DNA of 64,000 nucleotides from an uncultured Clostridia bacterium (lineage in GTDB: Bacteria; Bacillota; Clostridia; Christensenellales; UBA1242). A model generated the notes under the pieces. The model made no database searches and was not told the DNA's origin. It was given only the letters and a program-made list of their open reading frames with translations. A program made the position numbers and the translations under genes. Shown piece by piece: positions 4,009-53,776 of the stretch. How positions within the stretch are numbered: the first letter of the stretch is position 1; every line of letters begins with the position of its first letter. The stretch covers positions 17,921 through 81,920 of the forward strand of contig CALATF010000052.1 of the NCBI GenBank assembly GCA_937891595.1. The letters are read 5' to 3'.

Positions 4009-4026
4009 ATTTTCATTCCTTTATTA

Positions 4027-4824: not shown

Positions 4825-4998
4825 AAAACACCTTTACAAAATAATTATATCAAAAATCTTTTCAAAATAAAAACTAATTTTGCAAATTTTATAATATTAA
4901 TATATGTTAAGAGCTTTGTACTTAATTCATGAGTTATACACAAATTTATTAAAAATGTGGAAAACTAAAAAATAAAGCAGAAAAATTTTTCTGCTTTT

Positions 4999-5712
4999 TT
5001 AAATAATAGGAGATAGCCTTGGTTTATTTCCACCTCTTGGATATTTATTAGGTGTGCTTTTTATTTTATTAATAAAAACAAACTTCCTTTCAACCCCTTC
5101 TATATTTACAGTTAAAATATCTTTTAAAATTCCGCCCAAAACTTCAATAGCTTTTTTGCTTACTTCAAGTTCTTCTTGTATATCGCTAGATTTATATGCA
5201 ACCATTTGTCCACCAACTTTAATAAATGGTAAGGCATATTCAGAAAGGGTAGTTAAGTTTGCAACCGCACGAGAAACACAATAATCAAATTGTTCGCGAT
5301 ATTCTTTTTTGTTAGCAAGATCTTCAACTCTCGAATGAATAGTCGATATTCCATTTAAAGCTAAACTATTTATAACTTCTTGCAAAAAGCCTACTTTCTT
5401 ATTAACACTATCAACCATTAAAACCTCTAAGTCAGGTCTAATAATTTTTAATGGCAAACTAGGAAAGCCCGCTCCTGCACCTATGTCAATAATTTTAGCG
5501 CCCTGTTTTAAATATTTACTTGCTATAACACTATCTAAAAAATGCTTAACAATTACGTCATCTTGTTCTGTAATAGTTGTTAAATTAAATTTGTTATTTG
5601 TTTCTATCAATAAATTATAATAATTAAAAAACTTTTCTATTTGTTCTTCAGTTAACAAAATTTGATTTCTTTCGAATATTTCAGAAATTTTTATATTAAA
5701 TTCTTTTGTCAT
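4999..5712 (-). CDS. rsmG: 16S rRNA (guanine527-N7)-methyltransferase RsmG (GidB)
   Basis: SAM motif IIDIGAGAGFPSLPLKI. It lies immediately downstream of mnmG, the classic gidA-gidB order. Confidence 0.9.
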   Translation of the reverse strand: MTKEFNIKISEIFERNQILLTEEQIEKFFNYYNLLIETNNKFNLTTITEQDDVIVKHFLDSVIASKYLKQGAKIIDIGAGAGFPSLPLKIIRPDLEVLMVDSVNKKVGFLQEVINSLALNGISTIHSRVEDLANKKEYREQFDYCVSRAVANLTTLSEYALPFIKVGGQMVAYKSSDIQEELEVSKKAIEVLGGILKDILTVNIEGVERKFVFINKIKSTPNKYPRGGNKPRLSPII

Positions 5713-5713
5713 T

Positions 5714-7585: not shown

Positions 7586-7597
7586 AATTATCCTTCT

Positions 7598-8140
7598 TTA
7601 AAAATCAATTTGCTCTACGTCACCGTTTTTCATTACTTTATAATTTTCTGTTCTAACAAGAACAGGCCTGTTTCTGTCTTCTTTATTTTTAGATAAAAGA
7701 TTTCTTAAATATTTAAGAACTTCACCATGCCCAACAATTAAAATATTTTTGCCTTTATATTCTTCTAAGTCTTTTAAAAAACTACTAACACGAATATAAA
7801 CATCTTCATCTGTTTCGCCATTAAATTTATGAGGGTCTTTAAAAAATTCATCATATTTCCATTGTGGATTCTTAGTTCCTTCCAAGTCACCCTTAGCAAC
7901 TTCCATTAAACGTTTGTCTGTATGTAAGTCTAAATTATGATACTCTAAAATATATTCTGCCGTTTGCGTAGCCCTGTTAAGTGGAGAAGATACAACATAA
8001 TCAAATTTATAATCTTTTAGTTTTTCTGCAATCTCTTTTGCTTGCTTTAATCCTGTTTTATTTAAAGATGTATTAAGTTGTCCTTGGCTTACATTAAACA
8101 AATTAAAATCTGTTTCGCCATGCCTTACATAATAAATCAT
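7598..8140 (-). CDS. Histidine phosphatase family protein (phosphoglycerate-mutase-like)
   Basis: 180 aa with RHGETDFN near the N-terminus and a later GHGEV motif. Confidence 0.8.
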   Translation of the reverse strand: MIYYVRHGETDFNLFNVSQGQLNTSLNKTGLKQAKEIAEKLKDYKFDYVVSSPLNRATQTAEYILEYHNLDLHTDKRLMEVAKGDLEGTKNPQWKYDEFFKDPHKFNGETDEDVYIRVSSFLKDLEEYKGKNILIVGHGEVLKYLRNLLSKNKEDRNRPVLVRTENYKVMKNGDVEQIDF

Positions 8141-8158
8141 AACTTTTCCCTTATTAAT

Positions 8159-9520
8159 TTATTTTCCCAAACAAAACTTAGAAAATATCCTATCAATAAT
8201 TTTTTCGCTTGCACTTTCGCCAGTTATTTCTCCAAGCTTTTCCCAAATTGTTTTTACATCTAGCGCAGTGCAATCAAGTGGCATATCTAAAATATTTAAA
8301 AGAGTAGAACTTAATAAATTTTTACTTTCTTTTAAAACTTCCACATGTCTGGTGTTGGTTAAAATAATACTATTACTTGTATCGCAGTTGTTTAGTGTCA
8401 AATTATAAATTTGTTGTTTAAGCTGTTCGGTATTAATTTTTTCTTTTGCACTTATTTTAATACATTCACCATCAAAATTCCACTTAGCCGGCAAATCGCA
8501 TTTGTTTAAAACAACTATAGATTTTTTATCTTTAATAATTTCTAAGTTTTCTCTGTCTTGTTCGTTTAAATCTCTTGAACTATCTAAAACTAACAAAACA
8601 ATATCACTGTTTTCCAAAGTTTTTTTAGCTTTTTCAATTCCTATGTTTTCAACTTTGTCATCTGTTTTTCTAATACCTGCAGTATCAAAGAAATTGTATA
8701 CAATTCCATTATATTCAATGCTACCAGTAACAATATCTCTTGTAGTACCTTCAATGTCTGAAATAATAGCTTGGTCATAATTTAACAATGCGTTTAACAA
8801 ACTACTTTTACCAACATTTGTTTTTCCAACAATAGCTACGTTTATTCCTGATTTAATTATTTTACCTTGATGTTCAGTTTTTAGTAAATTACCAATTTTT
8901 GAAAGTAAATTTTCTAGCCTAGCTTTTATACTTTCTTTTGTTTCATATTCAATATCATGTTCAGGATAATCTAAGTTAACTTCTATTTCTGAAATAACAT
9001 CAGTTAATATGTTTTGAAAATCAACAACAGTTTTATATAAATTACCATTAGTAAGTTCATTGCTAGCTTTTAATTGACTTTCTGTTTCGGAATTAATAGT
9101 GTCTATTATTCCTTCAGCTTGGTCAAGAGACATCTTCCCGTTTAAAAAAGCCCTTTTTGAAAATTCACCTGGTTGAGCAAGTCTTGCACCAAACTTTAAG
9201 CATTGTTCAATAATTTTTTTACTTACAGCTAACCCGCCATGACATTGAAATTCTACTACATCTTCGCCTGTAAATGAACGTGGTGCTTTAAAATAAACAC
9301 ATAATCCCTTATCATAAATATCGCCTAAATTAATTTTACCTAAGTACATGTAATTTGGCATAGGATTTTCAAATTTACTGCAACAAAAAATTTGTTTGGC
9401 AACATCCAAACTATTTTTTCCACTTATTCTAATAATACCAATACCACTTTTGCCATTAGGCGTGGCTTGTGCAATAATTGTGTCTTCAAGCATGAAAATA
9501 TTATAGCACATAACTTTCAA
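8159..9520 (-). CDS. mnmE: tRNA modification GTPase MnmE (TrmE)
   Basis: G-domain motifs GKTNVGKSSLLNAL, DTAGIR and NKCD, plus the C-terminal CLGK. The start is ambiguous: TTG 9520, ATG 9511, or ATG 9493 giving MLEDTIIAQATP.. Confidence 0.93.
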   Translation of the reverse strand: MKVMCYNIFMLEDTIIAQATPNGKSGIGIIRISGKNSLDVAKQIFCCSKFENPMPNYMYLGKINLGDIYDKGLCVYFKAPRSFTGEDVVEFQCHGGLAVSKKIIEQCLKFGARLAQPGEFSKRAFLNGKMSLDQAEGIIDTINSETESQLKASNELTNGNLYKTVVDFQNILTDVISEIEVNLDYPEHDIEYETKESIKARLENLLSKIGNLLKTEHQGKIIKSGINVAIVGKTNVGKSSLLNALLNYDQAIISDIEGTTRDIVTGSIEYNGIVYNFFDTAGIRKTDDKVENIGIEKAKKTLENSDIVLLVLDSSRDLNEQDRENLEIIKDKKSIVVLNKCDLPAKWNFDGECIKISAKEKINTEQLKQQIYNLTLNNCDTSNSIILTNTRHVEVLKESKNLLSSTLLNILDMPLDCTALDVKTIWEKLGEITGESASEKIIDRIFSKFCLGK

Positions 9521-9630
9521 TTTTCCACCATTTTTTTTATTTTTTTTTACAGCTCTTACATAACATAATTTTAAAAATTTTTAGGTTTAAAAATATAAAA
9601 AAATTTGCTTTTATTTTGCCATAAAATACT

Positions 9631-9670
9631 AAAACGGTTTATTGAAAATTTTAAAAAAATAAACCGTTTT
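9631..9670 (-). terminator. Hairpin terminator downstream of jag
   Basis: AAAACGGTTTAT / ATAAACCGTTTT 12-bp inverted repeat, followed by T-rich sequence on the minus strand. Confidence 0.5.
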
Positions 9671-9738
9671 ATTTTTAATATTGCTTTTATTAAGCAAAAA
9701 AAAGAAAAACTATTTTTCAAGTTTTTCTTTTTTTTATT

Positions 9739-10518
9739 TTATTCGTTTTCGCTTTCTTTAGTAGGTATAATTACTAAATATCTATTAGGTTCTTCACCTT
9801 CACTTTTTGTAGTAACCCCATTAACATTTTGAAGTGCAGTGTGAATGATTTTTCTTTCATAAGCATTCATTCTTTCAAGTTTAATAGGCTTTTCAATTTT
9901 TAAAGCTTTTTTTGCCATTCTATCAGCCAAATTAATTAATGACATTTCTCTTCTGTTTTTATAGTTTTCAACGTCAAAATAAAATTTATATTTTCTATAC
10001 CCAGCATTCTTTAAAACATTAGATATAACATCTTGAATAGCATTTAAAGTTTCGCCTCTTTTACCTATTAAAGTGCTAACTTTTTCACCAGAAGCATTAA
10101 AAGTCATACTTGTTGAATCGTTGAAAGTAGTAATTTCAGCTTCAACATTCATTTTTTCAAATAAACCTTTTAAGAAATTAATTCCAAAGTTAGAAATATC
10201 TTCATCAGTATAAGTAGGTTTTTCAACTTCTTTAGTTTTTTCTTCGCTAACTTCTACTTTTTCTTCTTTTTTAACTTCTTCCTCTTCTTTTTGTTTTTTG
10301 GTTTCTTTTAAAGCTTTTTGTTCTTCTACTTTTTTAGCTTCTGCAATTTGTTTTTCTTCAACTTCTTTGTCTAAAATAAGTTCAACTCTAGCTTTCTTGA
10401 AAAATCCACCTTCTTCAAGAATTTTAATATCAACTTGGTCTTGGGTAGCATTTAATTCTTTAAGCCCAAGTTCAATAGCCTTTTGAACATTCTTTGCAGT
10501 AATTTCAATTTTTTTCAT
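9739..10518 (-). CDS. jag: RNA-binding protein Jag/KhpB (KH + R3H)
   Basis: E/K-rich linker, KH-like IGKRGETLNAIQ and R3H-like ERKIIHTAL. The ATG at 10518 is preferred because the ORF-track start at 10563 would overlap yidC. It sits in the conserved yidC-jag position. Confidence 0.88.
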   Translation of the reverse strand: MKKIEITAKNVQKAIELGLKELNATQDQVDIKILEEGGFFKKARVELILDKEVEEKQIAEAKKVEEQKALKETKKQKEEEEVKKEEKVEVSEEKTKEVEKPTYTDEDISNFGINFLKGLFEKMNVEAEITTFNDSTSMTFNASGEKVSTLIGKRGETLNAIQDVISNVLKNAGYRKYKFYFDVENYKNRREMSLINLADRMAKKALKIEKPIKLERMNAYERKIIHTALQNVNGVTTKSEGEEPNRYLVIIPTKESENE

Positions 10519-10546
10519 TAATAAACCCTTCTCTTTTAAATAAAAG

Positions 10547-11674
10547 TTATCTTCTATAGTCAACCTTTATTTGTTCCTGTCTTTTTAGTTCTTTTTTATC
10601 TTCAATTTTATTACATACAACTGTGCTAATAGGAGTGATAATTGTTGACATTAACGAGTTAGTAATAATATATAAAGCAAATATTGCACTAGATGAAATA
10701 GTAAACAACAACATAGCAATAGGTAAAATCCACATCATAGCTTTTGCAAGGCCAGGTTGTTGAACATTAACTGCTTGCCCGTTCTTTGCTTTTGGTTGTG
10801 ATATTTTTCTAATAAACCATTGTGATAAGAATGAAACCAACACAACAATAACAGATAAAACATAAAAACCATTTACATTATTAGTATTGTCATAACCTTG
10901 TAATAATAATCCCATTACCAAGTTATATTCTTCTTTGCTAACCTCAACATCTGTTGAAGCTTTAAAACTTTCGTAAGTAGAAATTTCTTTTACAGAAGCT
11001 TTGTCTGGTAACCATATATTTTTAATCCAAAGCCAACTGTCTTTAATGTCTTTGTATTTTTCAACAACTGCTTTTTGAGCATTGTTTATTGCAGTGTCTT
11101 TATTTTCTTTAACAGCAGTTTCATCACCTATTAAACTTTCTTTTTCAGCAATTAATGCCTTTTGTTCGTCTGCTTTTAAAGTTTTAAAGTTTTGTAAATC
11201 ATCAATTCCCAAATAATCTTGATAATATTCTTTTTCATAGGAAGTGTAATAAGTTGTTTGTAATTCTTCATACTGTTTTCCTATTTTGTAACCAGAAATA
11301 AATTTTAAAGAATTGAATAATGTTAAAAACACTGTAAGTGTAACAACCATATAAACTAACATTACTATACAAGAACCACCCATTCCCATATTATGTTTTT
11401 TGTATAGTTCGTTTTGTTTTTGATATAAAAGCTGTTGATTTTGCCCATATCTTTTTTTAAGTTTTTCTAGTTCAGGTTGAAGTTTTGCCTGTACTCTAGA
11501 TGTTTTATTAGTGTAATATCTTTGCAAAAAATCTAGTGGTGAAAGCACTAGTTTTAATACAACGGTAAAAAGAATAATTGTCCAAGCATAACTACCAACA
11601 TCAAAAATCTTAATAAGACTGGACCAAAAATTATTCTCTGGCCAAGCAGAGCTTAATAAATTTATAAAATCCAT
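10547..11674 (-). CDS. yidC: Membrane protein insertase YidC/SpoIIIJ family
   Basis: 375 aa multi-TM protein in the conserved rnpA-yidD-yidC-jag cluster. Confidence 0.88.
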   Translation of the reverse strand: MDFINLLSSAWPENNFWSSLIKIFDVGSYAWTIILFTVVLKLVLSPLDFLQRYYTNKTSRVQAKLQPELEKLKKRYGQNQQLLYQKQNELYKKHNMGMGGSCIVMLVYMVVTLTVFLTLFNSLKFISGYKIGKQYEELQTTYYTSYEKEYYQDYLGIDDLQNFKTLKADEQKALIAEKESLIGDETAVKENKDTAINNAQKAVVEKYKDIKDSWLWIKNIWLPDKASVKEISTYESFKASTDVEVSKEEYNLVMGLLLQGYDNTNNVNGFYVLSVIVVLVSFLSQWFIRKISQPKAKNGQAVNVQQPGLAKAMMWILPIAMLLFTISSSAIFALYIITNSLMSTIITPISTVVCNKIEDKKELKRQEQIKVDYRR

Positions 11675-11949
11675 TTTATCTTTCCTTTAATATTGGGTTT
11701 AACTTCGTCACGTCCGCCCTTATTCCATGGGTTACATCTAGCTATTCTTTTAAATCCCATAATCGAGCCTTTAAAAATACCATACTCTTTAACGGCTGTT
11801 AAAAAATATTTTGAACAACTAGGATAAAACCTACACACATGGGGAAGAAAGGGGGATATACAAAACTTATAGAAATATAAAAAGAAATATTCTATAATTA
11901 AAAGTGGAAAGAATATAATTTTACAAAAAATATTTAAAATTTTTAGCAT
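11662..11949 (-). CDS. yidD: Membrane protein insertion efficiency factor YidD
   Basis: CRFYPSCSKY and RCNPW motifs. It lies between rnpA and yidC. Confidence 0.88.
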   Translation of the reverse strand: MLKILNIFCKIIFFPLLIIEYFFLYFYKFCISPFLPHVCRFYPSCSKYFLTAVKEYGIFKGSIMGFKRIARCNPWNKGGRDEVKPNIKGKIKWIL

Positions 11950-11955
11950 ATAAAA

Positions 11956-12291
11956 TTAACTAATAAACTTAGCCTTTTTTAATAAATTAAAAAAATGCTC
12001 TTGCAAAGTAAAATAATCTAAGTTTTCACAACCTTGCTTTGCAACGAAAATATAATTATTGTTTGGCAATTTTTGTAAATTAAGCCTAACAATTTCACTA
12101 AGCTTTCTTTTAACTTTGTGCCTTACAACACTATTGCCAACTTTATTGCTTACGCTAAAACCAACTTTTTTATCTTTAAGTTTTGTTTTATGTACATACA
12201 TAGCAATAAACTTTGAATAAAAAACTTCGCCTTTTTTGTAAATAAAATTAAATTCTTTCTTTTTTTTAAGTCTATTATTTTTTTTTAACAT
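11956..12291 (-). CDS. rnpA: Ribonuclease P protein component
   Basis: 111-aa basic protein with the segment KVGNSVVRHKVKRKL, directly downstream of rpmH. Confidence 0.9.
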   Translation of the reverse strand: MLKKNNRLKKKKEFNFIYKKGEVFYSKFIAMYVHKTKLKDKKVGFSVSNKVGNSVVRHKVKRKLSEIVRLNLQKLPNNNYIFVAKQGCENLDYFTLQEHFFNLLKKAKFIS

Positions 12292-12302
12292 TTTTTCTTA
12301 AA

Positions 12303-12440
12303 TTAAGCAGATAAAACTTTTCTGCCACGATTTCTACGTCTTTTTAAAACTTTTCTACCATTTCTTGTAGCCATTCTTTTTCTAAAGCCATGAACTTTAA
12401 CTCTTCTTTTTTTGTTTGGTTGGTAAGTTCCCTTTTCCAT
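12303..12440 (-). CDS. rpmH: 50S ribosomal protein L34
   Basis: Too short for the ORF track. My translation is [45 protein letters not shown] (45 aa), with SD AGGAGG 7 nt upstream of the ATG at 12440. Confidence 0.95.
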
Positions 12441-12560
12441 AAAAAACCTCCTGTAAAATTTTATATAAGAAATTAAATTTTTTCTTTGTGCAAGTTTGTC
12501 CGTGGTAAAAGATTAATCGGTCGCTTTAAAACTGGTCTTCAATATTAAACTCGCTTGGCT

Positions 12561-12589
12561 AGTTTAGAATATTTTAACTTACTTGTCAA
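12561..12589 (-). promoter_or_regulatory. Putative sigma-A promoter of rpmH-rnpA (TTGACA-17-TAAACT)
   Basis: TTGACA is the reverse complement of 12584-12589 and TAAACT of 12561-12566. This implies a ~115-nt leader. Confidence 0.4.
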
Positions 12590-12710
12590 CAAAAAAATTC
12601 TTGAAAAATTTATATACTTTGCACTAAAATTTTTTTGCTAATTAAAATATATTATTTTATTAATAATATAGTTTAAAAACAAAACCGACCAACTTGTATT
12701 AAACAAAATT

Positions 12711-12741
12711 GCTACATTCCTTTGTTTTAGCGGAATGTAGC
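12711..12741 (-). terminator. Hairpin downstream of the 12888-13712 ORF
   Basis: GCTACATTCC (12711-12720) pairs with GGAATGTAGC (12732-12741) around an 11-nt loop. On the minus strand it is followed by AATTTTGTTT. Confidence 0.5.
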
Positions 12742-12887
12742 AAGAAATCTTTTATATTACTAAAAACAAAAAACAGTTAGTCGATTTTTCGTTTTAATAT
12801 TTTAACTTTTAAATTTATTTAAAATTTTATATTTCTTTAAATTTTATTTTTAACAAATCTAAAATCGTAAGCAATTTTATTTTGATT

Positions 12888-13712
12888 TTAGTTTTCAACC
12901 ATATCAGAAGTAGCTTCGTTAAAATTTTGTTCACCGACTACACCGTCGAGATTTTCGGCAAAACTTTTGTCTAAATTAAATCTTAATTTGTCTACTATAA
13001 AACTTGCGCTTGCCCCCCAAATATCATTACTAAAACTCCCAAAATTCAAACTTCTCATTGTTTGTTCATTAGGAAAATAGTTGAAATTAACTGAAACATA
13101 GTTAGGGTCAGAAGAATATGAGTAAACTTCATTATCGCACATCTCTTTTGAAGAATGAATATTACATATCCCCTGAGCAACTGCTTGTTGTATCTCATCA
13201 AAAGAAAATTGCTTTAATTCAATATTTGTTCCCTTTTGTGGTTCTTTATAAAATTTTGTAGGAATACTAAAAAATTCATGAACATCAACCAAAGGCATTA
13301 AAGTTAAAAACAATTCTTCTACTGTCTTTTTTTCTGGTAAGTTATTGTCAGCACTGTTTACTAAAACTATAACATCATTTTGATAAGTATAGTATTTTAA
13401 AAGGTCATATGTTGATACATAATCTTTCCAATTTTCACCTTGTTGTTTTATTTCAAAGTATCTACCAACACCTTCTTTCCCAGCTGTCTTTTGTATAAAT
13501 TGAGTTTCTAAAAAATTATTGATTATTTTTGGTCTTTCGCCAGTAAGAAAACCTCTTAATTCTTTATTAATAAAAAATTCATCTCTTTTTTCGTTAGGAT
13601 TACTAAAACCATATCTAGATGCAACATCGTTATTGTACATACTATCAATTTTGTTGTCGTTATCATCTGTTAGAGCTCTAAAAATTCCTCTAAGTAGTTC
13701 TTCTGTGTACAT
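12888..13712 (-). CDS. Hypothetical protein (no family recognised)
   Basis: A clean 274-aa ORF with no TM segment or signal peptide. The opposite-strand ORF 13519-13728 is a low-complexity shadow. Confidence 0.6.
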   Translation of the reverse strand: MYTEELLRGIFRALTDDNDNKIDSMYNNDVASRYGFSNPNEKRDEFFINKELRGFLTGERPKIINNFLETQFIQKTAGKEGVGRYFEIKQQGENWKDYVSTYDLLKYYTYQNDVIVLVNSADNNLPEKKTVEELFLTLMPLVDVHEFFSIPTKFYKEPQKGTNIELKQFSFDEIQQAVAQGICNIHSSKEMCDNEVYSYSSDPNYVSVNFNYFPNEQTMRSLNFGSFSNDIWGASASFIVDKLRFNLDKSFAENLDGVVGEQNFNEATSDMVEN

Positions 13713-13800
13713 ATATTTTTCCTTTTAATTCAACTAAAATAGTGTATCATAGCTTTTTAAAAATATATATAGTCAGTTTGCACATATTTTTATTTTTTTA

Positions 13801-13832
13801 TTATCCACAAACACTTAACTAAATGTGGATAA
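13801..13832. promoter_or_regulatory. Convergent pair of perfect DnaA boxes (TTATCCACA-N14-TGTGGATAA)
   Basis: TTATCCACA at 13801-13809 and TGTGGATAA at 13824-13832. Confidence 0.8.
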
Positions 13833-13860
13833 TATCCTTTGTTTTAGCGACATATAACTA

Positions 13861-14132
13861 TTTTTTAATAAATAAATATTTAAAAATAAAAAATATAATT
13901 TTTTTAAATTCTATTATTAAATTTTTTATATTAAATTATAAATTAATTAATAATATAATATAATAAAAAAATAAAATTTTTTAATTTTTTTTCATAAAAA
14001 TAATACTTTATTATAATTTAATAAATAATATAGTTGTTTATAATTTTTTTCGTAATTTTTTAACGTAAAAAGAAAAAAATTTTTATAATATATTAATTAA
14101 TAAAATAATTTTATGTTTTAAAAAAAATAATA
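13861..14132. other. Extreme A+T tract (candidate DNA-unwinding region)
   Basis: I count 11 G/C in 272 nt (~96% A+T). It lies directly beside the DnaA-box pair and downstream of dnaN. Confidence 0.4.
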
Positions 14133-14171
14133 AAAAAAACAACCCGATTAGGTTGCTTTTTTATTTAAATT

Positions 14172-15278
14172 TTATTGATTTATAATTCTAACAGGTAAAA
14201 TTAAGTATAAATATTCGTCTCCATCATTTGGTGTTATTACACATGGGCTTGAAGGCATATTAAAACTAATTTTTATTGCTTCGTCAGAAATTGTTCTTAA
14301 ACATTCAGTAAAATATCTGCTATTAAAAGCAATTGTTAAATCATTACCTTTAAGTGAAATACCTATGTTTTCTTTTATATTGCCTATGTCTGAGTTAGAA
14401 GTAAGTGTTAAAACTTTTTCTTTAATATCAAATTTAACTAAATTGTTTCTATCTACCCTAGAAAGCACTGAAGTTCTTTCAATAGCTTCTTCAAAAACAT
14501 TTTTACTAATTGTAAGATTTGTTGAAAAATCTTTTGGAATAATTTGTTTGTAATTAATAAAATCGCCATCAATAAGTCTTGTAATAATTTTTGTGTTATC
14601 AAATTCAACCATTAAGAAGTTCTTTTGAATATAAACATTAATTTCTTCATCGTTATCTTCTAAGAACTTGCAAATTTCAGTTAAACTTTTAGCTGGAACA
14701 ATAATGCTTGTATTAACTGTTGTTTTAACTAATGGTTTTTTAACAAATGCAAGTCTATAACCATCAAGACCAACAGAATTAATACAATCTTGGTTAATTT
14801 CAAAACAACAACCTTTTAAAACTGGTCTAGTATCATCAATAGCAGTTGAGAAAATTGATTTGTTAATAAGAGTTTTAAAATCTTTTTGTTTAATTGTAAA
14901 GAAATCACCATCTTCAATAATATTTAAATTAGGAAACTCTACAACATTAAAACATTGAACATAACTTTCACTATCTGTGTAATTAATTTTTAATCTGTTT
15001 TTATCAGATAATTCAAGTTCTATTTTTTCTCCAGTAAGTTTTTTAATAAATTCCGAAAAGAATTTACCAGGAATAACTGTTTCGCCTTCTAATTTTACAT
15101 CTGCTTTAATTGTTTTTTCAATAGCTAACTCTAAGTCTGTTGCTGATAACTTTAATCTATCATTTTCTGCACTAAGTTTAATACCTTCTAAAACCGGATT
15201 TGTAGTTTTGTTAGATATTGCTTTTATTACTTGAGCAGTTGCAATACTTAAGTCAAGCCCGTCACATACAACCTTCAT
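14172..15278 (-). CDS. dnaN: DNA polymerase III beta sliding clamp
   Basis: 368 aa with full-length DnaN-like sequence (MKVVCDGLDLSIATAQVIKAISNKTTNPVLEGI..), adjacent to dnaA. Confidence 0.95.
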   Translation of the reverse strand: MKVVCDGLDLSIATAQVIKAISNKTTNPVLEGIKLSAENDRLKLSATDLELAIEKTIKADVKLEGETVIPGKFFSEFIKKLTGEKIELELSDKNRLKINYTDSESYVQCFNVVEFPNLNIIEDGDFFTIKQKDFKTLINKSIFSTAIDDTRPVLKGCCFEINQDCINSVGLDGYRLAFVKKPLVKTTVNTSIIVPAKSLTEICKFLEDNDEEINVYIQKNFLMVEFDNTKIITRLIDGDFINYKQIIPKDFSTNLTISKNVFEEAIERTSVLSRVDRNNLVKFDIKEKVLTLTSNSDIGNIKENIGISLKGNDLTIAFNSRYFTECLRTISDEAIKISFNMPSSPCVITPNDGDEYLYLILPVRIINQ

Positions 15279-15328
15279 TTTATATTCTCCTTTTTTTTAA
15301 TTTAATAATAATATTAAGCGTGTGTAAA

Positions 15329-15558
15329 TGTGAATAACCTTTTTTTTAACAAAATGTTGTGTTTTTATTTTAGCACAAATTTCAAAAAACTCAATATGTT
15401 GTTGTGGATAATTTTTTTTAGCAATAATTAAAATTGTTGATAACTTTATCTTTGTTCGACCAAGTGTTCTAAAACACTTTCGCGCGTATTAAATTATTAA
15501 TTTATTAATAATATTAATTATAAAACGTTATTAATAAGCATTGTGAATTTGTGTATAA
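15329..15558. promoter_or_regulatory. DnaA-box cluster in the dnaA-dnaN spacer (oriC part)
   Basis: TGTGGATAA at 15403-15411 is perfect. One-mismatch boxes are TGTGAATAA 15329-15337, TGTTGATAA 15435-15443 and TGTGTATAA 15550-15558. All share the same orientation. Confidence 0.7.
15481..15525. other. GC cluster (CGCGCG) followed by 39 nt of pure A/T: candidate DUE
   Basis: CGCGCG at 15481-15486, then an uninterrupted A/T run at 15487-15525, lying between DnaA boxes. Confidence 0.4.
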
Positions 15559-15668
15559 CTTTTTATACAACCCATATATTGTGGTTTTTTTAAAAAAAAT
15601 TAAAAAAAATCAATAAATATTGATAAATTTTATCAACAAAAAAAGTGGAAAAATATGTATATTTGTTT

Positions 15669-17027
15669 TTAATTGTCAGATTTTATCATAGCGATAATAT
15701 CTTCAATATTTGTTTTTAAAGACCTATCAGTCTTAATGTTTTGTGAAATTTTATCCCTAGCGTGCATAATTGTTGTATGGTCCCTACCACCAAAAGCATT
15801 ACCTATTGTCATTAAAGGAACATCCATAAGTTCTGTAATTAAATAAATACAAATTTGCCTTGGGTCAACAATTTCTTTGTTTTTCTTTTTGCCAACAAGG
15901 TCTGCTTTTTTAACATTGTAATATTTACAAACAGTGTCCATAATCTTTTCGACTGTCAAGTTTTGATTTTGAGTGTTAGCAATATCTTTTAAAGCTTCTT
16001 CAGCTTCAAGCATTGTAGCTTTAGATCTACCTATTAAACTAGAAAGTGAAACAACTTTATTTAAACTACCTTCAAGTTCCCTGATATTTGTATCAATACT
16101 TTCAGCAAGAAATTCTAAAACATCATTTTCAACACTATAATTTTCTATTTCAACTTTCTTTTGTAAAATTGCAAGTCTTGTTTCAAAATCAGGTTTTTGA
16201 ATATCTTGAATCAAACCGCCCGTAAATCTTGATTTTAAACGTTCCTCAAGTGTTTCCATGTTTCTTGGGTGTTTATCAGAAGAAATTACAATTTGTTTGT
16301 CTAATTGATATAAATCATTAAAAGTGTGGAAGAATTCTTCCTGAGTGCTTGTTTTGTTAGAAATAAATTGAATATCATCAACCATTAAAACATCAACATC
16401 TCTATATTTATCTCTAAAAGCTTTATTAGCATTTTCTTTTTTATCTGCTTTTAAAGCTTGGATATAGTCGTTTGTGAATTGTTCACTTGTAACATATAAA
16501 ATTTTTATATTTTTGTTATTTTTTTTAATATAATTACCTATTGCGTGCAATAAGTGAGTTTTTCCTAAACCAACGCCACCGTAAATAAAAAGTGGATTGT
16601 ATTTTTTACCTGGGTTTTCGGCAACACTTCTTGAAGCTGCGTAAACAAATTGATTGCTTTTACCAACAACAAAACTTTCAAATGTGTATTTTTCGTTTAA
16701 TTTGTTTTTATCGTTTAACATGTTATTAGTTTCAATCATGTCCTCAGCTTCTTTAACATCTTCTAAAAAAGCTTCTTTTTCACCTGGTTCTAAAACTAAA
16801 ATATCTTCAATGTTGTCAAAATGTTCTTTAACAACGTTTAATAATTTTTCTTTATGCAATTTTAAAAGTTGATTTTTGTTTGTAGAGGTTGAAGCCAAAA
16901 CAACTAATTTATTTTTATCAACCTTAATAGGCTCTAAAGTTTCAATATATAAATCGTAACTTACTGCAGTTACCAAATTTTCCATTTCTTTTAGAACTTC
17001 ATTCCACCTAGTTAAAAAATTATTCAT
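15669..17027 (-). CDS. dnaA: Chromosomal replication initiator DnaA
   Basis: 452 aa with Walker A GGVGLGKTHLLHAIGN and the C-terminal DNA-binding segment GGRDHTTIMHARDKI. Confidence 0.97.
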   Translation of the reverse strand: MNNFLTRWNEVLKEMENLVTAVSYDLYIETLEPIKVDKNKLVVLASTSTNKNQLLKLHKEKLLNVVKEHFDNIEDILVLEPGEKEAFLEDVKEAEDMIETNNMLNDKNKLNEKYTFESFVVGKSNQFVYAASRSVAENPGKKYNPLFIYGGVGLGKTHLLHAIGNYIKKNNKNIKILYVTSEQFTNDYIQALKADKKENANKAFRDKYRDVDVLMVDDIQFISNKTSTQEEFFHTFNDLYQLDKQIVISSDKHPRNMETLEERLKSRFTGGLIQDIQKPDFETRLAILQKKVEIENYSVENDVLEFLAESIDTNIRELEGSLNKVVSLSSLIGRSKATMLEAEEALKDIANTQNQNLTVEKIMDTVCKYYNVKKADLVGKKKNKEIVDPRQICIYLITELMDVPLMTIGNAFGGRDHTTIMHARDKISQNIKTDRSLKTNIEDIIAMIKSDN

Positions 17028-17054
17028 ACAAACCTCTCAAATAAATATATAATT

Positions 17055-17083
17055 ATATTACTACAATAATTAATATTTGTCAA
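17055..17083 (-). promoter_or_regulatory. Putative dnaA promoter (TTGACA-17-TAATAT)
   Basis: TTGACA is the reverse complement of 17078-17083 and TAATAT of 17055-17060. SD GAGAGG precedes the ATG at 17027. Confidence 0.5.
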
Positions 17084-17358
17084 GAAAATAAAGGTTTTTA
17101 GCCTTTTTTAGTAAGTAATAAATTTGTTCAATTTGTACAAAAATTTAATAAAATTTATTATGTATAAAATATAAAAATACTTTTAAACAAGCAATAAAAA
17201 TTTTTGGTTAAAAATAACAAAAAATAGTATATTTTGGTAAAAAATATCTATTTTTACTTAAAAACAATAAAAACAAATGTTTTTTAATAAAAAATTATAG
17301 AATTTAATTTATTTAAAAATACCTTTTAAAAGTGTTTAAATTATGATAAAATATTCAC

Positions 17359-18465
17359 ATGTATATAGAAAGTGTAAAACTAGAAAATTTTAGAAATTAT
17401 AATACGTGTGAAGTAAAATTAAAGCCAAATCTAAATGTTTTTAAGGGTAACAATGCTCAAGGTAAGACAAATTTTTTAGAAAGCATATATTTTTCAAGCA
17501 TAGGTAAATCTCCTAAAACAAATAAAGAAAAAGACTTAATTTTATGGGGCGAAGATAGTGCAAAAATAACAATTAACCTAAAAAAACAATATTTTAGTCA
17601 AAAAATAGAGGTTTTTTTAAACAAAAGCACTAATAAAACAATAAAAATAAATAGTTTGAATATTAGAAAAATAGGTGACTTAATAGGAGAAATGCCAGTT
17701 GTTTATTTTTCTCCCGAGGAAATAGGTTTAATAAAAGATGGTCCTGCAGATAGAAGAAGATTTATGGATATTGATATTAGTCAATTAAATAAAAACTATT
17801 TTTACTTGCTTTGCAGGTATGAAAAAGTTTTGGCAGAACGAAATAAATTATTAAAGCAAACAAGAAAAATTGAAAATCTTTATGAAACCATTGAACTTTG
17901 GGATTCTCAACTTGCAGATATAGCTAGTAAAATTATATTTTTTAGGTTGGATTTTATAGAAAAAATTAAAGAACCCGCAAAAAAAGTTCATTCCAATATA
18001 ACTTCTAATCAAGAAGTGCTTGAAGTAAAATATCAGGGTATTCAATTAAAAAATGTTGAAGAAATTAAAGGAAAGTTATTAAAAGCTTATAAATCTAGTT
18101 TGCAAAAAGATTTTGAGTTTGGTTATACAACGGTAGGCCCACATAGAGATGATATAGAAATTACAATCAACAACATTGATATTCGAAATTTTGGTTCACA
18201 AGGTCAACAAAGGCTCGCAACTCTTTCTCTCAAAGTTGCCGAACTTGTTTTATTTGAAAAACAAACAGGTGAAAAACCTATTTTACTTCTTGATGATGTT
18301 TTAAGTGAATTAGATGCAAAAAGACAAAAAAATTTATTAAATGAAATAAAAAATTATCAAACTATAATAACAACTACAAAATTTGGTAAAATTTCAGATG
18401 AAAATAGTACAATTTTTATGGTAAAAAATGCTGTTATTGAAGAAAAACAAAATATAAAAAATTAA
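17359..18465 (+). CDS. recF: DNA replication/repair protein RecF
   Basis: Walker A GNNAQGKTNFLESIY, signature GSQGQQRLATLSLK and Walker B LLLDDVLSELD. Confidence 0.95.
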   Translation: MYIESVKLENFRNYNTCEVKLKPNLNVFKGNNAQGKTNFLESIYFSSIGKSPKTNKEKDLILWGEDSAKITINLKKQYFSQKIEVFLNKSTNKTIKINSLNIRKIGDLIGEMPVVYFSPEEIGLIKDGPADRRRFMDIDISQLNKNYFYLLCRYEKVLAERNKLLKQTRKIENLYETIELWDSQLADIASKIIFFRLDFIEKIKEPAKKVHSNITSNQEVLEVKYQGIQLKNVEEIKGKLLKAYKSSLQKDFEFGYTTVGPHRDDIEITINNIDIRNFGSQGQQRLATLSLKVAELVLFEKQTGEKPILLLDDVLSELDAKRQKNLLNEIKNYQTIITTTKFGKISDENSTIFMVKNAVIEEKQNIKN

Positions 18466-19118
18466 AAAAGATTTAAATTATACAAATTTAAGTCTTTTTT
18501 TATTAAAAAATTGCCAAAATTATAAAGAAAATATAAATAAAAATAAAAAAATATTTAAAAATAAAAGTCAAAAAACAAATTATTACAATAAAATCTAAAA
18601 CTTTTAAATAAATATTAAATTGTATAAATTTAAAATTAAATTAAAACTTTATATAAAAAATGATTAAAATTAAATATACACATAAAAGTTAAAATTATAA
18701 AAATTATAATTAAAACTATTTTATTTTTTATAGTTTTTTATAAAAATAATTAAAACAAAAATACTTTTAAATCTTAAAAAATGTTTTTTTAAATTAAAAT
18801 TTTTGTTTAAAAATTTTTATTAAAATAATAATTTTATTAAAAATTTCTAAAAAAAAGCCAAAAAAGCATCAATTTTCACTTAATTTTCATGTTTTTCACA
18901 CACTTTGGCAAACGCTAAAAATTTTAAATTAACATAGTTATAAAATTATAATTATTATAATTTAATGATTTGTCTTAATTTTTATCTATTTTTAGGCAAA
19001 ATTTTATCCTGAAATTATAAAAAATTTTTCATAAAAAATTTACAAATTTGCTTTTTTTTTAAAAACATATATGATATATTATATATATAATATATATTAA
19101 TAATATTATAATAGGAAA

Positions 19119-19159
19119 AACCAAACATCGAACACAAGTTTGGTTACTTAATTTTTTTT
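19119..19159 (+). promoter_or_regulatory. Hairpin plus T-run in the gyrB leader (terminator/attenuator-like)
   Basis: AACCAAAC (19119-19126) pairs with GTTTGGTT (19138-19145). T8 at 19152-19159 ends ~8 nt before the gyrB SD AAGGAG. Confidence 0.35.
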
Positions 19160-19163
19160 GTAA

Positions 19164-21116
<1,953 letters not shown>

Positions 21117-21133: not shown

Positions 21134-21451
21134 ATGGTAGATTTAAATAAATTACAGCAAGAAATTTATCAAAATAAAGTTAACAAAGGTTTTAATGTTT
21201 CAGATAATAAGGAAAATATATACAGGCAATTTTGCTTAATACAGGGTGAGCTTTCCGAAGCTTTTGAAGCTTATAATAAAAACTTAAATAATTTAGGTGA
21301 AGAACTTGCAGATGTTTGTATTTATATTCTTGGTTTAAGCCAAATAAAAGGCATAAATCTTGAAGAAGAAATATTAAAAAAAATAGAAGTTAACAAAAAA
21401 AGAAAATATAAAAACGTTAATGGAGTTTTTATAAAAGAAGAACAAAAATAG
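21134..21451 (+). CDS. MazG-like all-alpha nucleotide pyrophosphohydrolase (small, single domain)
   Basis: 105 aa. The helix pair GELSEAFEAY ... EELADVCIYILGL matches the MazG/YpjD-type metal-binding E-x-x-E/D motifs. Confidence 0.7.
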   Translation: MVDLNKLQQEIYQNKVNKGFNVSDNKENIYRQFCLIQGELSEAFEAYNKNLNNLGEELADVCIYILGLSQIKGINLEEEILKKIEVNKKRKYKNVNGVFIKEEQK

Positions 21452-21460
21452 GTAAAAATA

Positions 21461-21946
21461 ATGCAAAAAGAAACAATTTTAGTTGTGGCAACTGATGAAG
21501 AATATCAAAAAGTAAAAGGCAGAACGCCATTAAAAATAATTCAAACGGGCATAGGTTATGGCAACGTAATAAATGCTTTAAAAAATTTAGATGCAAAAAA
21601 AATAAAAATATATAATGTTGGATATGCAGGCAGTAATTTGCTTAAACGTGGAACGTTAGTAAAGGTAAAAAATAGTTATAATCACCACGAAAATGCACAG
21701 TTTGATGAAAAACTATACACTTTAAATGGTACGACCGATTGCTACACATCAAGTGATTTTGTGCTTAGTACAAAAATTCAACAACCTGTTGTTTTTGATA
21801 TGGAACTTAATGCAATATGCTCCTTTGGTTTTGAAGTTGAGTCCTATAAAATAGTAAGCGATAACTTATCTATGCAAGAATATGAAGAAGCAGATTTTGA
21901 AAAGGCATGGGTAGAAGTTTTAAATTTAATTAATAAGGGGAATTAA
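21461..21946 (+). CDS. Compact PNP/UDP-phosphorylase-superfamily protein (MTA/SAH-nucleosidase-like)
   Basis: 161 aa. The segments VATDEEY, TGIGYGNV, GYAGS, FDMELNA and IVSDNLS parallel the MTAN catalytic segments, but the protein is ~70 aa shorter. Confidence 0.6.
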   Translation: MQKETILVVATDEEYQKVKGRTPLKIIQTGIGYGNVINALKNLDAKKIKIYNVGYAGSNLLKRGTLVKVKNSYNHHENAQFDEKLYTLNGTTDCYTSSDFVLSTKIQQPVVFDMELNAICSFGFEVESYKIVSDNLSMQEYEEADFEKAWVEVLNLINKGN

Positions 21947-21952
21947 AAGAAG

Positions 21953-24442
21953 ATGAAAAAACAAGATTATTCAAAAGAATATGAACAAATTGTTGACAAC
22001 ACCAAGTATATTAAAGTTCACCTAAACGAAGAAATGAAAAAATCGTTTATTTCTTATGCTATGGCTGTTAACGTAAGTCGTGCTATTCCTGATGTTAGGG
22101 ACGGTTTAAAGCCTGTTCATAGGCGTATTCTATACGCCATGGGCGAGTTGAATTTATCTAACGACAAACCTTTTAGAAAATGTGCACGTATCGTTGGTGA
22201 CGTTTTGGGTAAATATCACCCTCATGGTGACACTGCTGTTTATGAAGCTCTTGTAAGATTAGCTCAAGACTTTTCTATTAACGAGCCACTTGTTTCTGGA
22301 CAAGGTAACTTTGGTAGTATAGACGGCGATCCTCCTGCTGCTCAACGTTACACAGAAGCAAAGCTTTCAAAAATTGCTGGCGAAATGTTAAAAGAAATAG
22401 ACAAAGAAACGGTAGATTTCTACCCTAACTTCGACGGTACTTTGCAACAACCAGTTGTTTTACCTTCACGTTTCCCTAACCTTTTAGTAAATGGTTCAGA
22501 TGGTATTGCTGTTGGTATGGCTACAAATATTCCACCACATAATCTAGGTGAAGTTATTGATGGTGTTATTGCCCTTATTGATAACCCAGAAATTGAAATT
22601 GAGGATTTAATTAAAATTATTCCTGCCCCAGATTTCCCAACAAAAGGTATTATTATGGGTAGAGCAGGTATAAGAAATGCCTATAAAACAGGTAGAGGAA
22701 ACATTGTTCTTAGAGCAAGAACTGAAATTGAAGAAGAGGAAAGAAGAAGTCGCATAATTATTACCGAACTTCCTTATCAAGTAAACAAAGCAAAATTAAT
22801 TGAACTTATTGCTAACCTTGTAAAAGATAAAAAAATTGAAGGTATTAGCGATATTAAAGAAGAATCTGACCGAACAGGTATGAGAATTGTTGTTGATGTT
22901 AAAAAAGATGCAAATCCACAAGTAGTTTTAAATCTTTTATACAAACACACGCCACTTCAACAAGGCCAAGGAATTATTTTCCTAGCTCTTGTAGATGGCG
23001 AACCAAAAATATTAAATTTAAAACAAATGCTTTATTATTACTTGCTTCACCAAAAAGAAATAGTTACTAGAAGAACTCGCTATGACCTTGAAAGAGCACA
23101 AGAAAAAGCACACATTTTAGAAGGCTTAGCAATAGCTTTAGCTAATGTAGATGAAGTTGTTAGAATTATTAAAAAGAGTGAAGATAAAGTAGACGCAAAT
23201 AACAAATTACGCCAAAAATTCTTGCTTAGCGAAAAACAAGCCACCGCTATTTTGGAAATGCGTTTGCAACGACTAACTAGTCTTGAAGTTCAAAAAATTC
23301 GCGAAGAATTAGACGGATTACGCATTCAAATTGCTGAATATAAGGCTATTTTAAAAAGCGAACAACGAGTTTTGGATATTGTTAGAAACGAACTTAACGA
23401 AGTTAAAGAAAAATATGCAAGACCAAGACAAAGTGAAATTAGCGTTGACTTTGACGATATTGATATTGAAGACCTTATTGAAAAAGAAGATGTTGTAATT
23501 TCTCTTACTCATTTTGGTTATATTAAACGTCAGCCTGTAAATGAATATAAAACACAAAAACGTGGTGGTGTAGGTGTGAACGCACACAAGACAAAAGAAG
23601 AAGACTTTGTTAAAAAGATGTTTATTGCAAATACTCATGATAATTTGTTATTCTTCACAAGCAAAGGACGAGTTTTCTGTCAAAAAGCTTACACCATACC
23701 AGAGGCTCAAAAATCAGCCAAAGGCAGAGCAATCATTAATTTACTACATTTATCCGAAAATGAAACAGTTACCGAAATTTTAACTCTTTCTAATGACTTA
23801 AAAGGCTATTTAATTATGGCTACAAAAGGTGGCTTAATTAAAAAGACTTCTATTGATGAATTTAAGCATATTAATAAAAATGGTAAAATAGCAATTAAGT
23901 TACTTGATAACGACTCGTTAATAAGCGTAGACATCACAAATGGTAGAGATGAAATTATAGTTGCTACACATGAAGGAAAATGCATAAGATTTAGTGAAGA
24001 AAATGTTAGAAAAATGGGTAGAAGTTCACAAGGTGTAAAGAGTATTAGTCTTAATAAGAAAGATTATGTTGTAGATATGTCAGTAATTAAAAAAGGTTGT
24101 CAAATCTTAACAATATCTGAAAACGGTTACGGTAAACGTAGCGACCCTAACGACTATCGCTTACAAACACGAGGTGGTAAAGGTATTAAAGCTGGTGTAT
24201 TCAACCAAAAAACAGGTAAACTTGTAAACTTAAAACAAATTAAAATGGAACAAGATGTTATTCTAATTTCAGATAATGGAACAATTATTAGGTTAGAAGC
24301 AGAACAAATTAGCAAAATAGGTAGAAATACTCAAGGCGTTAAGATTATGCGACTTAAAGATAAGAGCTATAAAGTAGTTTGTGCGTCTGTTGCTGAACAC
24401 GAAGAAGTTGAAGAAACTGAAGAAGTTGAAGGCGAAGAATAA
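21953..24442 (+). CDS. gyrA: DNA gyrase subunit A
   Basis: 829 aa with active-site region [10 protein letters not shown], a GyrA-box-like QKRGGVGV and an acidic C-terminal tail. Confidence 0.98.
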
Positions 24443-53511: not shown

Positions 53512-53583
53512 ATTATTTATGTATTATTATTCAATAAAAATCCACCCGAACCATAATAGTACGGATAGACAAGTTGCTGGCGG
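53512..53583. repeat. tRNA-Ser 3' end plus downstream hairpin (partner of 50487-50553)
   Basis: Aligned by eye to 50487-50553. Shared blocks are AAAAATCCA, TAATAGTA, GGAT.GACAA and TGGCGG. Confidence 0.6.
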
Positions 53584-53665
53584 AGAGGACAAGATTCGAA
53601 CTTGCGGTGGGTTGCCCCACACGCGCTTTCCAAGCGCGCACTTTAGACCACTCGGACACCTCTCC
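53578..53665 (-). tRNA. tRNA-Ser (anticodon GGA)
   Basis: The reverse complement is GGAGAGGTGTCCGAGTGGTCTAAAGTGCGCGCTTGGAAAGCGCGTGTGGGGCAACCCACCGCAAGTTCGAATCTTGTCCTCTCCGCCA, with a long variable arm, discriminator G and an encoded CCA. Confidence 0.92.
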
Positions 53666-53736: not shown

Positions 53737-53776
53737 TTATCCACTTATCCACAAAATATCAATAAATTGTGGATAA
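53737..53776. promoter_or_regulatory. DnaA-box trio: TTATCCACT + TTATCCACA - N14 - TGTGGATAA
   Basis: 53737-53745 has one mismatch, while 53745-53753 and 53768-53776 are perfect. It lies ~70-110 bp upstream of tRNA-Ser. Confidence 0.75.

Follow-up and report, generated by a model that had tools for sequence, protein, structure and literature searches.

An inverted dnaA-dnaN cassette, probably carrying the replication origin, in a clade of uncultured Clostridia

The rnpA-rpmH-dnaA-dnaN gene context is regarded as conserved in Bacillota (PMC7561715), and its extended form, rnpA-rpmH-dnaA-dnaN-recF-gyrB, is the Firmicute origin landmark used by origin predictors and in genome-start conventions. 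Where does replication start, and how do the forks meet the genes, in a chromosome in which dnaA and dnaN are turned around within this landmark? The question is raised by a 64,000-nucleotide stretch of DNA from an uncultured Clostridia bacterium of the order Christensenellales (contig CALATF010000052.1, positions 17,921 to 81,920; hereafter the window, in whose own numbering all window positions are given). The Pfam identities and strands of the genes agree with the preliminary description of this DNA, according to which dnaA and dnaN are located on the minus strand, co-oriented with rpmH and divergent from recF. The overall order is rpmH(-), an orphan open reading frame (ORF) (-), dnaN(-) and dnaA(-), followed by recF(+), gyrB(+) and gyrA(+):

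11956-12291, minus strand: rnpA (Pfam scan and ORF lists)
12303-12440, minus strand: rpmH (L34; Pfam PF00468, E 9e-20), first gene of the rpmH-rnpA-yidD-yidC-jag-mnmE-mnmG-rsmG-soj block
12888-13712, minus strand: orphan 274-aa ORF between dnaN and rpmH, no Pfam match
14172-15278, minus strand: dnaN, sliding clamp (Pfam PF00712, PF02767, PF02768)
15669-17027, minus strand: dnaA (Pfam PF00308, PF08299), read towards the candidate unwinding site
17359-18465, plus strand: recF (Pfam PF02463), first gene of the recF-gyrB-gyrA block, now divergent from dnaA
19179-21116, plus strand: gyrB (Pfam)
21953-24442, plus strand: gyrA (Pfam), followed by yabP(+)

The rpmH block is now downstream of dnaN and has the same orientation. 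All non-nested ORFs of at least 90 aa within 3088-17027 are on the minus strand, and the ORF lists agree with the earlier placement of the coding-strand switch in the dnaA-recF spacer; the cumulative GC-skew minimum of the window falls in the 16-18 kb bin. The whole is probably best explained by the inversion of a cassette that carried the origin with it and by the loss of the oriC1 box cluster.

Contigs of relatives were fetched via graded DnaA matches in the protein database. An exact-sequence lookup of the window DnaA (and of P0001, which is 100% identical) returned no contig, and relatives at 59-98% were used; pattern scans of genome and metagenome contigs gave best DnaA identities of 56% and 53%, respectively, the closer relatives being in the protein database. 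The loci that bear on the order are as follows (percentages are DnaA identities to the window):

L170, 98%, ENA: recF(-), then dnaA(+) and dnaN(+), spanning the junction between recF and dnaA-dnaN
L171, 95%, Logan: dnaA-dnaN-273-aa ORF-rpmH-rnpA-yidC-jag on one strand
L161, 90%, JGI, contig of 362 kb: window order, complete from yabP to mnmG
L163, 81%: window order
L164, 73%: window order
L166, 65%, 1.05-Mb scaffold: window order
L169, 62%: window order
L168, 59%: window order
L003, L004 and L005, 48-56%, GenBank metagenome-assembled genomes (MAGs): window order

Thus, the synteny comparison with close relatives that had been proposed as a check finds the same order in at least 11 independent assemblies, whose DnaA identities range from 98% to 48%, and near-conspecific contigs span each junction. 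Misassembly and a private local event, both considered in the preliminary description, are contradicted by this recurrence. That a 3.2-kb segment was mis-oriented in one contig is exceedingly improbable: no support for it was found, although the flanking AT-rich, low-complexity spacers could in principle confuse an assembler, and both junctions recur in assemblies that were made independently, with different pipelines and from different samples (JGI, ENA/SPIRE, Logan and GenBank MAGs). The canonical order, rpmH(-) followed by dnaA(+), dnaN(+) and recF(+), is found in 80 of the other loci that were retrieved by DnaA similarity and could be scored in full. With about 80 fully resolved canonical loci set against one clade, the order is indeed very unusual for Bacillota, as had been claimed. 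No description of this arrangement in Clostridia or Christensenellales was found in the literature, of which coverage was incomplete.

In a neighbour-joining tree of DnaA, the non-canonical loci all fall into a single group, separate from the canonical Bacillota, and the window-type order is present in every major branch of this group. A higher-GC sister set (L023, L047 or 'Candidatus Coproplasma avicola', L054 and L107) also has recF(-) followed by dnaA(+). Several other members are rearranged further:

L165, 8067-10000: recF flipped again, so that the strand switch is between gyrB and recF
L167, 10246-10740: rnpA to jag preceding dnaA in the same orientation; dnaA and dnaN separated by an additional gene
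L001, 9281-10001: dnaN inverted against dnaA
L087, 5680-5915: dnaN 3 kb upstream of dnaA

This distribution is explained most simply by a single ancient inversion, after which the surroundings of the origin, unusually fluid in this lineage, were rearranged further. The earlier suggestion of a local inversion of just dnaA, the spacer and dnaN therefore stands as the simplest description relative to the rpmH and recF-gyrB-gyrA blocks; as a recent event it does not, being clade-wide instead.

The distribution of DnaA boxes was compared across the same loci, a box being defined as TTWTNCACA or as a sequence with at most one mismatch to TTATCCACA, counted per spacer. Upstream of dnaA, boxes number 6.9 on average (median 7) over about 640 bp in the 80 canonical loci, and eight of eight clade loci have none (spacers of 92-519 bp). 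Between dnaA and dnaN, the canonical mean is 4.1 and the clade loci have 2-5; downstream of dnaN, the respective figures are 0.2 and 0-3. In the window, the scan reproduces the perfect boxes reported earlier, at 13801-13809(+), 13824-13832(-) and 15403-15411(-), and gives one-mismatch boxes at 15329, 15435, 15550 and 15630. The dnaA-dnaN spacer has five boxes in 390 bp against 0.12 expected (Poisson P ~2e-7). The dnaA-recF spacer has none in 331 bp against 0.10 expected, which alone is not significant (P(0)=0.91) and is meaningful only in comparison with the canonical loci, because the median there is 7. The scan thus agrees with the earlier report of no box with one mismatch or fewer in 17028-17358; the degenerate candidate ATATTCACA is present at 17351-17359, where it overlaps the recF ATG.

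The dnaA-recF spacer contains the following features:

17028-17358, strand not applicable: dnaA-recF spacer with the coding-strand switch and the right-hand inversion junction; divergent promoters only
17055-17083, minus strand: dnaA promoter TTGACA-17-TAATAT, without a DnaA box, the sole conserved block of this spacer

The near-consensus dnaA promoter noted earlier is confirmed at 17083..17055 on the minus strand, the conserved block being CTAAAtcCCTTTATTTTCTTGACA...TAATAT. The spacer is only 92-134 bp long in L004, L005, L166, L168 and L169 (92-114 bp in L166, L004 and L005). L168 is an exception in having a perfect TTATCCACA between the -35 and -10 elements of the dnaA promoter. It is plausible that box-mediated autoregulation of dnaA has been lost, as was suspected from the start, and that dnaA is now driven by a conserved, box-free promoter of the sigma-A type.

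The features of the dnaA-dnaN spacer, where the boxes are concentrated, are as follows:

15279-15668, minus strand: dnaA-dnaN spacer, predicted oriC2/incC-type origin region with 5 DnaA boxes (box scan)
15321-15337, minus strand: module B, tandem boxes TTATTCACA-tt-TACACA, then CGC and TTA ATA TTA TTA
15403-15411, minus strand: perfect DnaA box, kept in the window, L170, L171 and L161
15435-15443, minus strand: DnaA box TTATCAACA; AGTTAT..ACA core invariant in six relatives
15487-15541, minus strand: candidate DnaA-trio run and predicted AT-rich unwinding element, adjoining module A
15542-15558, minus strand: module A, tandem boxes TTATACACA-aa-TTCACA, with an invariant AAAAGTTAT..ACA..T..ACA pattern
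15630-15638, plus strand: DnaA box TTATCAACA, adjoining the dnaA stop codon

When the spacer of the window is aligned with those of five relatives (73-98% identity), the invariant columns coincide precisely with the boxes. The invariant blocks are TGTTGATAA by the dnaA stop codon, AAAAGTTATnCACAnnTTCACA in module A, AGTTATCAACA at 15435-15443, TTATCCACA at 15403-15411 and GTTATTCACAttTGCACAcgc in module B. Module A is followed by atg CTT ATT / TTA TTA ATA and then by an AT-rich sequence of 55 bp; adjoining this module are the 40 bp with the lowest stability in the spacer (15486-15525), and a CGCGCG cluster is located beyond the candidate AT-rich element, at 15481-15486. Module B is directly before the dnaN ribosome-binding site and overlaps a promoter-like site; its position relative to dnaN is the one seen in canonical loci. 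The canonical relatives have, 54-148 bp before dnaN, the motif TTATCCACA-nn-TCCACA-gcc-CCT ACT ACT ATT ACT followed by AT-rich sequence, in which the ACT-type triplets are the complement of 3'-GAT-5' DnaA-trios and are preceded by a short GC cluster. The window motif is near-identical to it. This tandem-box motif recurs between dnaA and dnaN in the members of the clade, where it is directed at dnaN and precedes trio-like triplets and AT-rich sequence; well-formed trios are seen in L003 (cc TAC TAC TAA TAA TAC TAC TAT), L169 and L087, and more degenerate ones in the subclade of the window.

The rearranged loci are informative with regard to this motif. In L001, the tandem-box/AT-rich module shares the inversion of dnaN against dnaA. 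In L087, dnaN lies 3 kb away from dnaA, and just before dnaN is the module TTGTACACA-tt-TTCACA-cccc..TAC TGC TAC TAC. The tandem-box module thus appears to be a conserved unit, because it stays immediately upstream of dnaN in both cases. Origins that go with dnaN instead of dnaA are known from cyanobacteria, among others, and the unwinding module predicted here resembles such dnaN-linked origins in that, within the clade, it follows dnaN when the two genes are separated or mutually inverted. In having a single box cluster, the window is also similar to the monopartite origin of Campylobacter jejuni (PMC6052347); the differences are that dnaA and dnaN are still adjacent in the window and that the lineage belongs to Bacillota. 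As a separate observation, two same-orientation tandem-box modules are found in the subclade of the window (spacer of about 390 bp), and a single one in the relatives with spacers of about 200 bp (L166, L169, L168 and L003); the second module may be a duplication of the unwinding module.

Most likely, then, the functional origin stays in the dnaA-dnaN spacer. The strand switch in the dnaA-recF spacer most likely does not mark the origin: that spacer is box-free and contains only promoters, and the boxes and the candidate unwinding module are in the dnaA-dnaN spacer. The best characterized counterparts are the bipartite origins of B. subtilis (incAB and incC) and C. difficile (oriC1 and oriC2). 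In C. difficile, unwinding occurs at oriC2, downstream of dnaA and beside a DnaA-trio, as is predicted for other clostridia, and in B. subtilis the basal unwinding system (BUS) is inside incC, the other boxes being regulatory, as summarised in the same paper (PMC7561715). As in these origins, the window has a box cluster between dnaA and dnaN, with tandem boxes, trio-type triplets and an AT-rich element towards dnaN, and dnaA is read towards this element. Unlike them, it lacks the oriC1 cluster upstream of dnaA (no boxes versus a median of 7); the context is recF divergent from dnaA-dnaN-ORF-rpmH-rnpA, not rnpA-rpmH divergent from dnaA-dnaN-(recF); the dnaA promoter is not box-embedded; the cassette is inverted; yaaA and remB are absent; and two tandem-box modules are found in the subclade. 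The BUS has been defined, and its breadth described, as at least three DnaA-trios (3'-NAN-5') no more than 16 bp from a DnaA box, with an AT-rich flank (PMC8287927). Modules A and B both have this composition, one or two boxes within 16 bp of at least three NAN-type trios and an AT-rich flank (Richardson 2016/2019, Pelliciari 2021), which is a weak test at 80-85% AT; the resemblance is closest in L003, L169 and L087, and the window has a degenerate form. The differences are that the module is recognised here from sequence alone and that it may be the whole origin of the clade rather than the core of a larger one.

The course of events that best accommodates these observations would be the following. 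In an ancestor of this low-GC clade, a cassette of 3.2-3.6 kb, consisting of the dnaA promoter, dnaA, oriC2 and dnaN, would have been inverted between the rpmH block and the recF-gyrB-gyrA block, and the functional origin would have moved along with it; on a circular chromosome, this is equivalent to inverting everything except the origin cassette. DnaA would bind the box cluster in 15279-15668 and form a filament from module A (15542-15558), and possibly also from module B (15321-15337), onto the adjacent trio-like triplets, so that the AT-rich stretch at about 15487-15541 would be opened, as by the basal unwinding system of incC/oriC2 in B. subtilis and C. difficile. Transcription after this event would run leftward in the rpmH block and dnaN and rightward in recF-gyrB-gyrA, in all of them away from the origin, and dnaA would still be transcribed towards it, as in B. 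subtilis and the canonical layout generally.

The junction spacers, 13713-14171 and 17084-17358, are about 1.35-1.8 kb and 1.6-1.85 kb away from a predicted site at about 15500. The inversion would therefore be origin-symmetric, given that its breakpoints flank the site at about 15.5 kb at similar distances, a symmetry conditional on that site; it could have been fixed because the orientation of genes to the fork was unchanged, that is, as a neutral event. Origin-symmetric inversions are the dominant tolerated class and are most easily tolerated because the gene orientation relative to the fork is unchanged (PMC5850607, PMC9584773). The case described here is similar to these in that the breakpoints lie on either side of the predicted origin at similar distances and the co-orientation of the flanks is kept, and differs in size (about 3.5 kb, enclosing only the origin, dnaA and dnaN, compared to usually tens of kb to Mb in the cases on record) and in age, being apparently very old and fixed at family or order depth, with no detectable junction repeats. 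A search for inverted repeats and mobile elements at the junctions gave only low-complexity AT-rich matches of 70-81% identity, and no inverted repeat, IS element or rRNA operon is seen at the breakpoints; no such repeats are expected, because the event predates divergence to 48% DnaA identity.

Fork orientation was assessed from the sense-strand third-position GC skew (GC3 skew) of orthologs in 10 clade loci and 50 canonical low-GC loci. For dnaN, the shift from canonical loci to the clade is -0.27, and for the co-directional flanking genes it is -0.28 to -0.41; there is no sign in this ortholog-controlled comparison that dnaN has become head-on, which is a clean negative. The head-on reading of dnaA, and possibly dnaN, by the rightward fork that the preliminary description anticipated as a consequence of the inversion is thus not borne out: dnaN would be co-directional with the leftward fork, as its skew shift, shared with the co-directional genes, also indicates, and the head-on position of dnaA would be the one that it already has in the canonical layout, where unwinding is likewise downstream of dnaA. 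In accord with this, in the canonical loci the GC3 skew of dnaA is -0.11, compared to +0.12 to +0.31 for recF, gyrB, gyrA, mnmE, mnmG and rsmG. Within the window alone, four-fold degenerate sites have too few G and C (7 per gene) and are noisy, and the GC3 skew is dominated by gene-specific effects, so that gyrA and gyrB look 'head-on' although they cannot be. On a separate note, the GC3 skew of most of the genes compared (dnaA, dnaN, recF, gyrB, gyrA, mnmE, mnmG, jag and rsmG) is about 0.3-0.4 lower in the clade than in the canonical low-GC Bacillota; the leading-strand genes of the clade are C-rich, not G-rich, at synonymous sites, and the usual leading-strand G-over-C signature of the window comes from codon positions 1 and 2.

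Several observations weigh against the inversion of an origin-bearing cassette or against the exact placement of the origin. The skew deficit of dnaA relative to its neighbours falls from 0.34 in canonical loci to about 0.13 in the clade, which is ambiguous, as it fits either a weaker replication skew in the clade or a dnaA that is no longer head-on. The single origin of the arrangement is deduced from one protein by neighbour joining. There are two tandem-box modules, and either could be the unwinding site; the triplets of module A in the window are degenerate, and three consecutive NTN arise easily at 80-85% AT. By nearest-neighbour duplex stability, all five intergenic spacers of the locus, in a genome of 27% GC, are equally unstable, and because every spacer holds equally unstable stretches, helical instability cannot discriminate among them; the stability profile supports only the local placement next to module A. 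The placement of the origin draws on the architecture of the motif and its conservation. Finally, oriC2 of C. difficile alone is not unwound in vitro without oriC1 (PMC7561715), so that an origin made up of oriC2 only might not suffice.

The alternatives concern the two other spacers next to the cassette. The one downstream of dnaN contains, next to the orphan ORF, the convergent box pair that was noted earlier:

13746-13782, minus strand: predicted promoter-like block of the orphan ORF, TGCAAACTGAC...TATGAT, conserved in the window, L171 and L161
13801-13832, strand not applicable: convergent pair of perfect DnaA boxes, TTATCCACA-N14-TGTGGATAA (box scan)

About 70 canonical loci have exactly this architecture, TTATCCACA-N14-TGTGGATAA, as a mark of their rpmH-dnaA spacer. 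Conservation in the window, L171 and L161 extends to the pair and the orphan promoter block alike; the pair sits on this promoter block and not by a conserved unwinding element. It is probably either an operator through which DnaA acts on the orphan ORF or what is left of oriC1. Of the two, a transcriptional role is favoured, because the canonical loci L066, L071 and L153 already have the pair after dnaN and because the pair rides the orphan promoter. The stretch of about 300 bp of ultra-AT-rich sequence downstream of dnaN is indel-rich even in comparison with relatives whose DnaA is 90-95% identical.

A bipartite origin re-partitioned around dnaN, in which oriC2 would cooperate with the 13801-13832 pair as an oriC1 remnant on the rpmH side and loop out dnaN instead of dnaA, is unlikely. 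It would make use of a pair that is a hallmark of the canonical rpmH-dnaA spacer and is found downstream of dnaN in the window, L161, L165 and L001, and it would accord with the requirement of C. difficile for both sub-origins for unwinding in vitro (PMC7561715). However, the dnaN-rpmH spacer has only 0-3 boxes in the clade (L166 and L004 have none, L163 and L164 one each), so that the pair is naturally absent in many members; its co-conservation with the orphan promoter block suggests a transcriptional operator, and its presence after dnaN in L066, L071 and L153 makes a derivation from oriC1 unnecessary. An origin that has moved altogether to 13713-14171, where the box pair adjoins a 300-bp stretch of about 5% GC, would place both dnaN and dnaA head-on to the rightward fork. 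Two perfect boxes do abut the largest low-stability region of the locus, which has 156 forty-bp windows with dG above -37 kcal (the least stable being 13925-13964), but the AT-rich stretch is unconserved, is 120-300 bp long or absent in L161, L163 and L164, and is in keeping with the expanded AT-rich spacers that are general in this genome, such as the 713-bp recF-gyrB spacer; moreover, 13713-14171 contains no tandem-box/trio module, and the skew shift of dnaN is that of co-directional genes. Such a move is highly improbable.

Hardly more credible is an origin in the dnaA-recF spacer itself (17028-17358), with degenerate boxes or independent of boxes, from which dnaA and dnaN would both be co-directional with the leftward fork. 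Both the coding-strand switch and the minimum of the cumulative GC skew are there, and the smaller skew deficit of dnaA in the clade (difference of differences +0.21 for GC3 and +0.28 for GC4) points in the same direction. The skew switch of the whole sequence is, however, explained by the coding-strand switch alone; none of the eight clade loci has a box with at most one mismatch or a TTWTNCACA in this spacer, the only conserved block is the dnaA promoter, and at the 92-134 bp seen in five of the relatives there is room for two divergent promoters only.

To return to the inverted cassette with its origin in the dnaA-dnaN spacer, no new kind of machinery needs to be invoked, as this looks like an ordinary Firmicute oriC2/incC unwinding module. 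Judged from the census of boxes, the real change is the loss of the upstream box cluster (oriC1/incAB) throughout the clade. Tentatively, and perhaps somewhat against the balance of probability, the clade could be a family- or order-level lineage with a lifelong oriC2-only minimal origin, a box-free dnaA promoter and a module tied to dnaN. If so, the oriC1 cluster that C. difficile needs in vitro, and in which the dnaA promoter of model Firmicutes is embedded, would be dispensable in nature, and classical dnaA autoregulation would be missing. More generally, it appears that the origin landmark can be broken by a tiny origin-centred inversion without disturbing the co-orientation of replication and transcription, that the strand or skew switch and the region upstream of dnaA are poor guides to the unwinding site in such genomes, and that the oriC1/incAB cluster and the box-embedded dnaA promoter can be lost over long evolutionary time. 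The clade would then be a natural test of whether a basal unwinding system is enough by itself for a chromosome, and of dnaA control without promoter boxes.

The orphan 274-aa ORF is unannotated and was omitted from the preliminary description. It belongs to a fast-evolving, clade-specific family that has kept the same position, with weak syntenic homologues in L161 (13158-14171), L163 (13000-13722), L164 (12949-13902), L165 (13625-14566) and L171 (3288-4109). The family is recognisably conserved only over the N-terminal ~125 aa, with the motif KNWxDxLSxxDL..YYxFQ. A word-based search identifies 4 homologues, and an exhaustive search 8 matches among 1.84 billion representatives; an AlphaFold2 model of the protein, with a pLDDT of 44, is too poor for a fold search.

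The remaining features of the locus are as follows:

4027-4824, minus strand: soj (Pfam scan and ORF lists)
14133-14162, minus strand: intrinsic-terminator-like hairpin directly 3' of dnaN

The leftward run beyond rnpA consists of yidD, yidC, jag, mnmE, a histidine phosphatase gene, mnmG, rsmG, soj and a parB-like gene, all on the minus strand. An Rfam search of the window at the gathering threshold gives two tRNAs only, and no RNA element in the spacers. The recF-gyrB spacer (18466-19178; 713 bp, about 12% GC) contains no ORF and neither a remB/yaaB gene; the corresponding spacer is 90-190 bp long in L161, L163 and L164 and is filled by two ORFs in L166 and L169, with a weakly mTERF-like annotation in L166, so the window seems to have a decayed or expanded spacer. 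Two ORFs are encoded between gyrB and gyrA (21134-21946), one of them MazG-like and the other 161 aa long with no Pfam match; this insertion is kept in L161 and L164, there is none in L163, L165 and L166, and the interval in L167 contains two small ORFs with no Pfam match. Next to gyrA in L164 (719-2830), a reverse transcriptase (RVT_1) gene and a bAvd-like ORF precede an ORF of 1518 aa, and the group resembles a diversity-generating retroelement.

Two further groups of DnaA boxes are located away from the cassette. At 53737-53776, just upstream of tRNA-Ser(GGA) (53578-53665, minus strand), there are three boxes, two of which form a perfect convergent pair, TTATCCACA-N14-TGTGGATAA, spaced like the one at 13801-13832; this is likely to be a DnaA-binding site away from the origin. 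In the rsmG-soj spacer (4934-4964), a convergent pair of one-mismatch boxes with a 13-nt gap is found, as it is at the same place in L163 (20599-20629; 81% DnaA identity), which suggests control of the soj-spo0J operon by DnaA.

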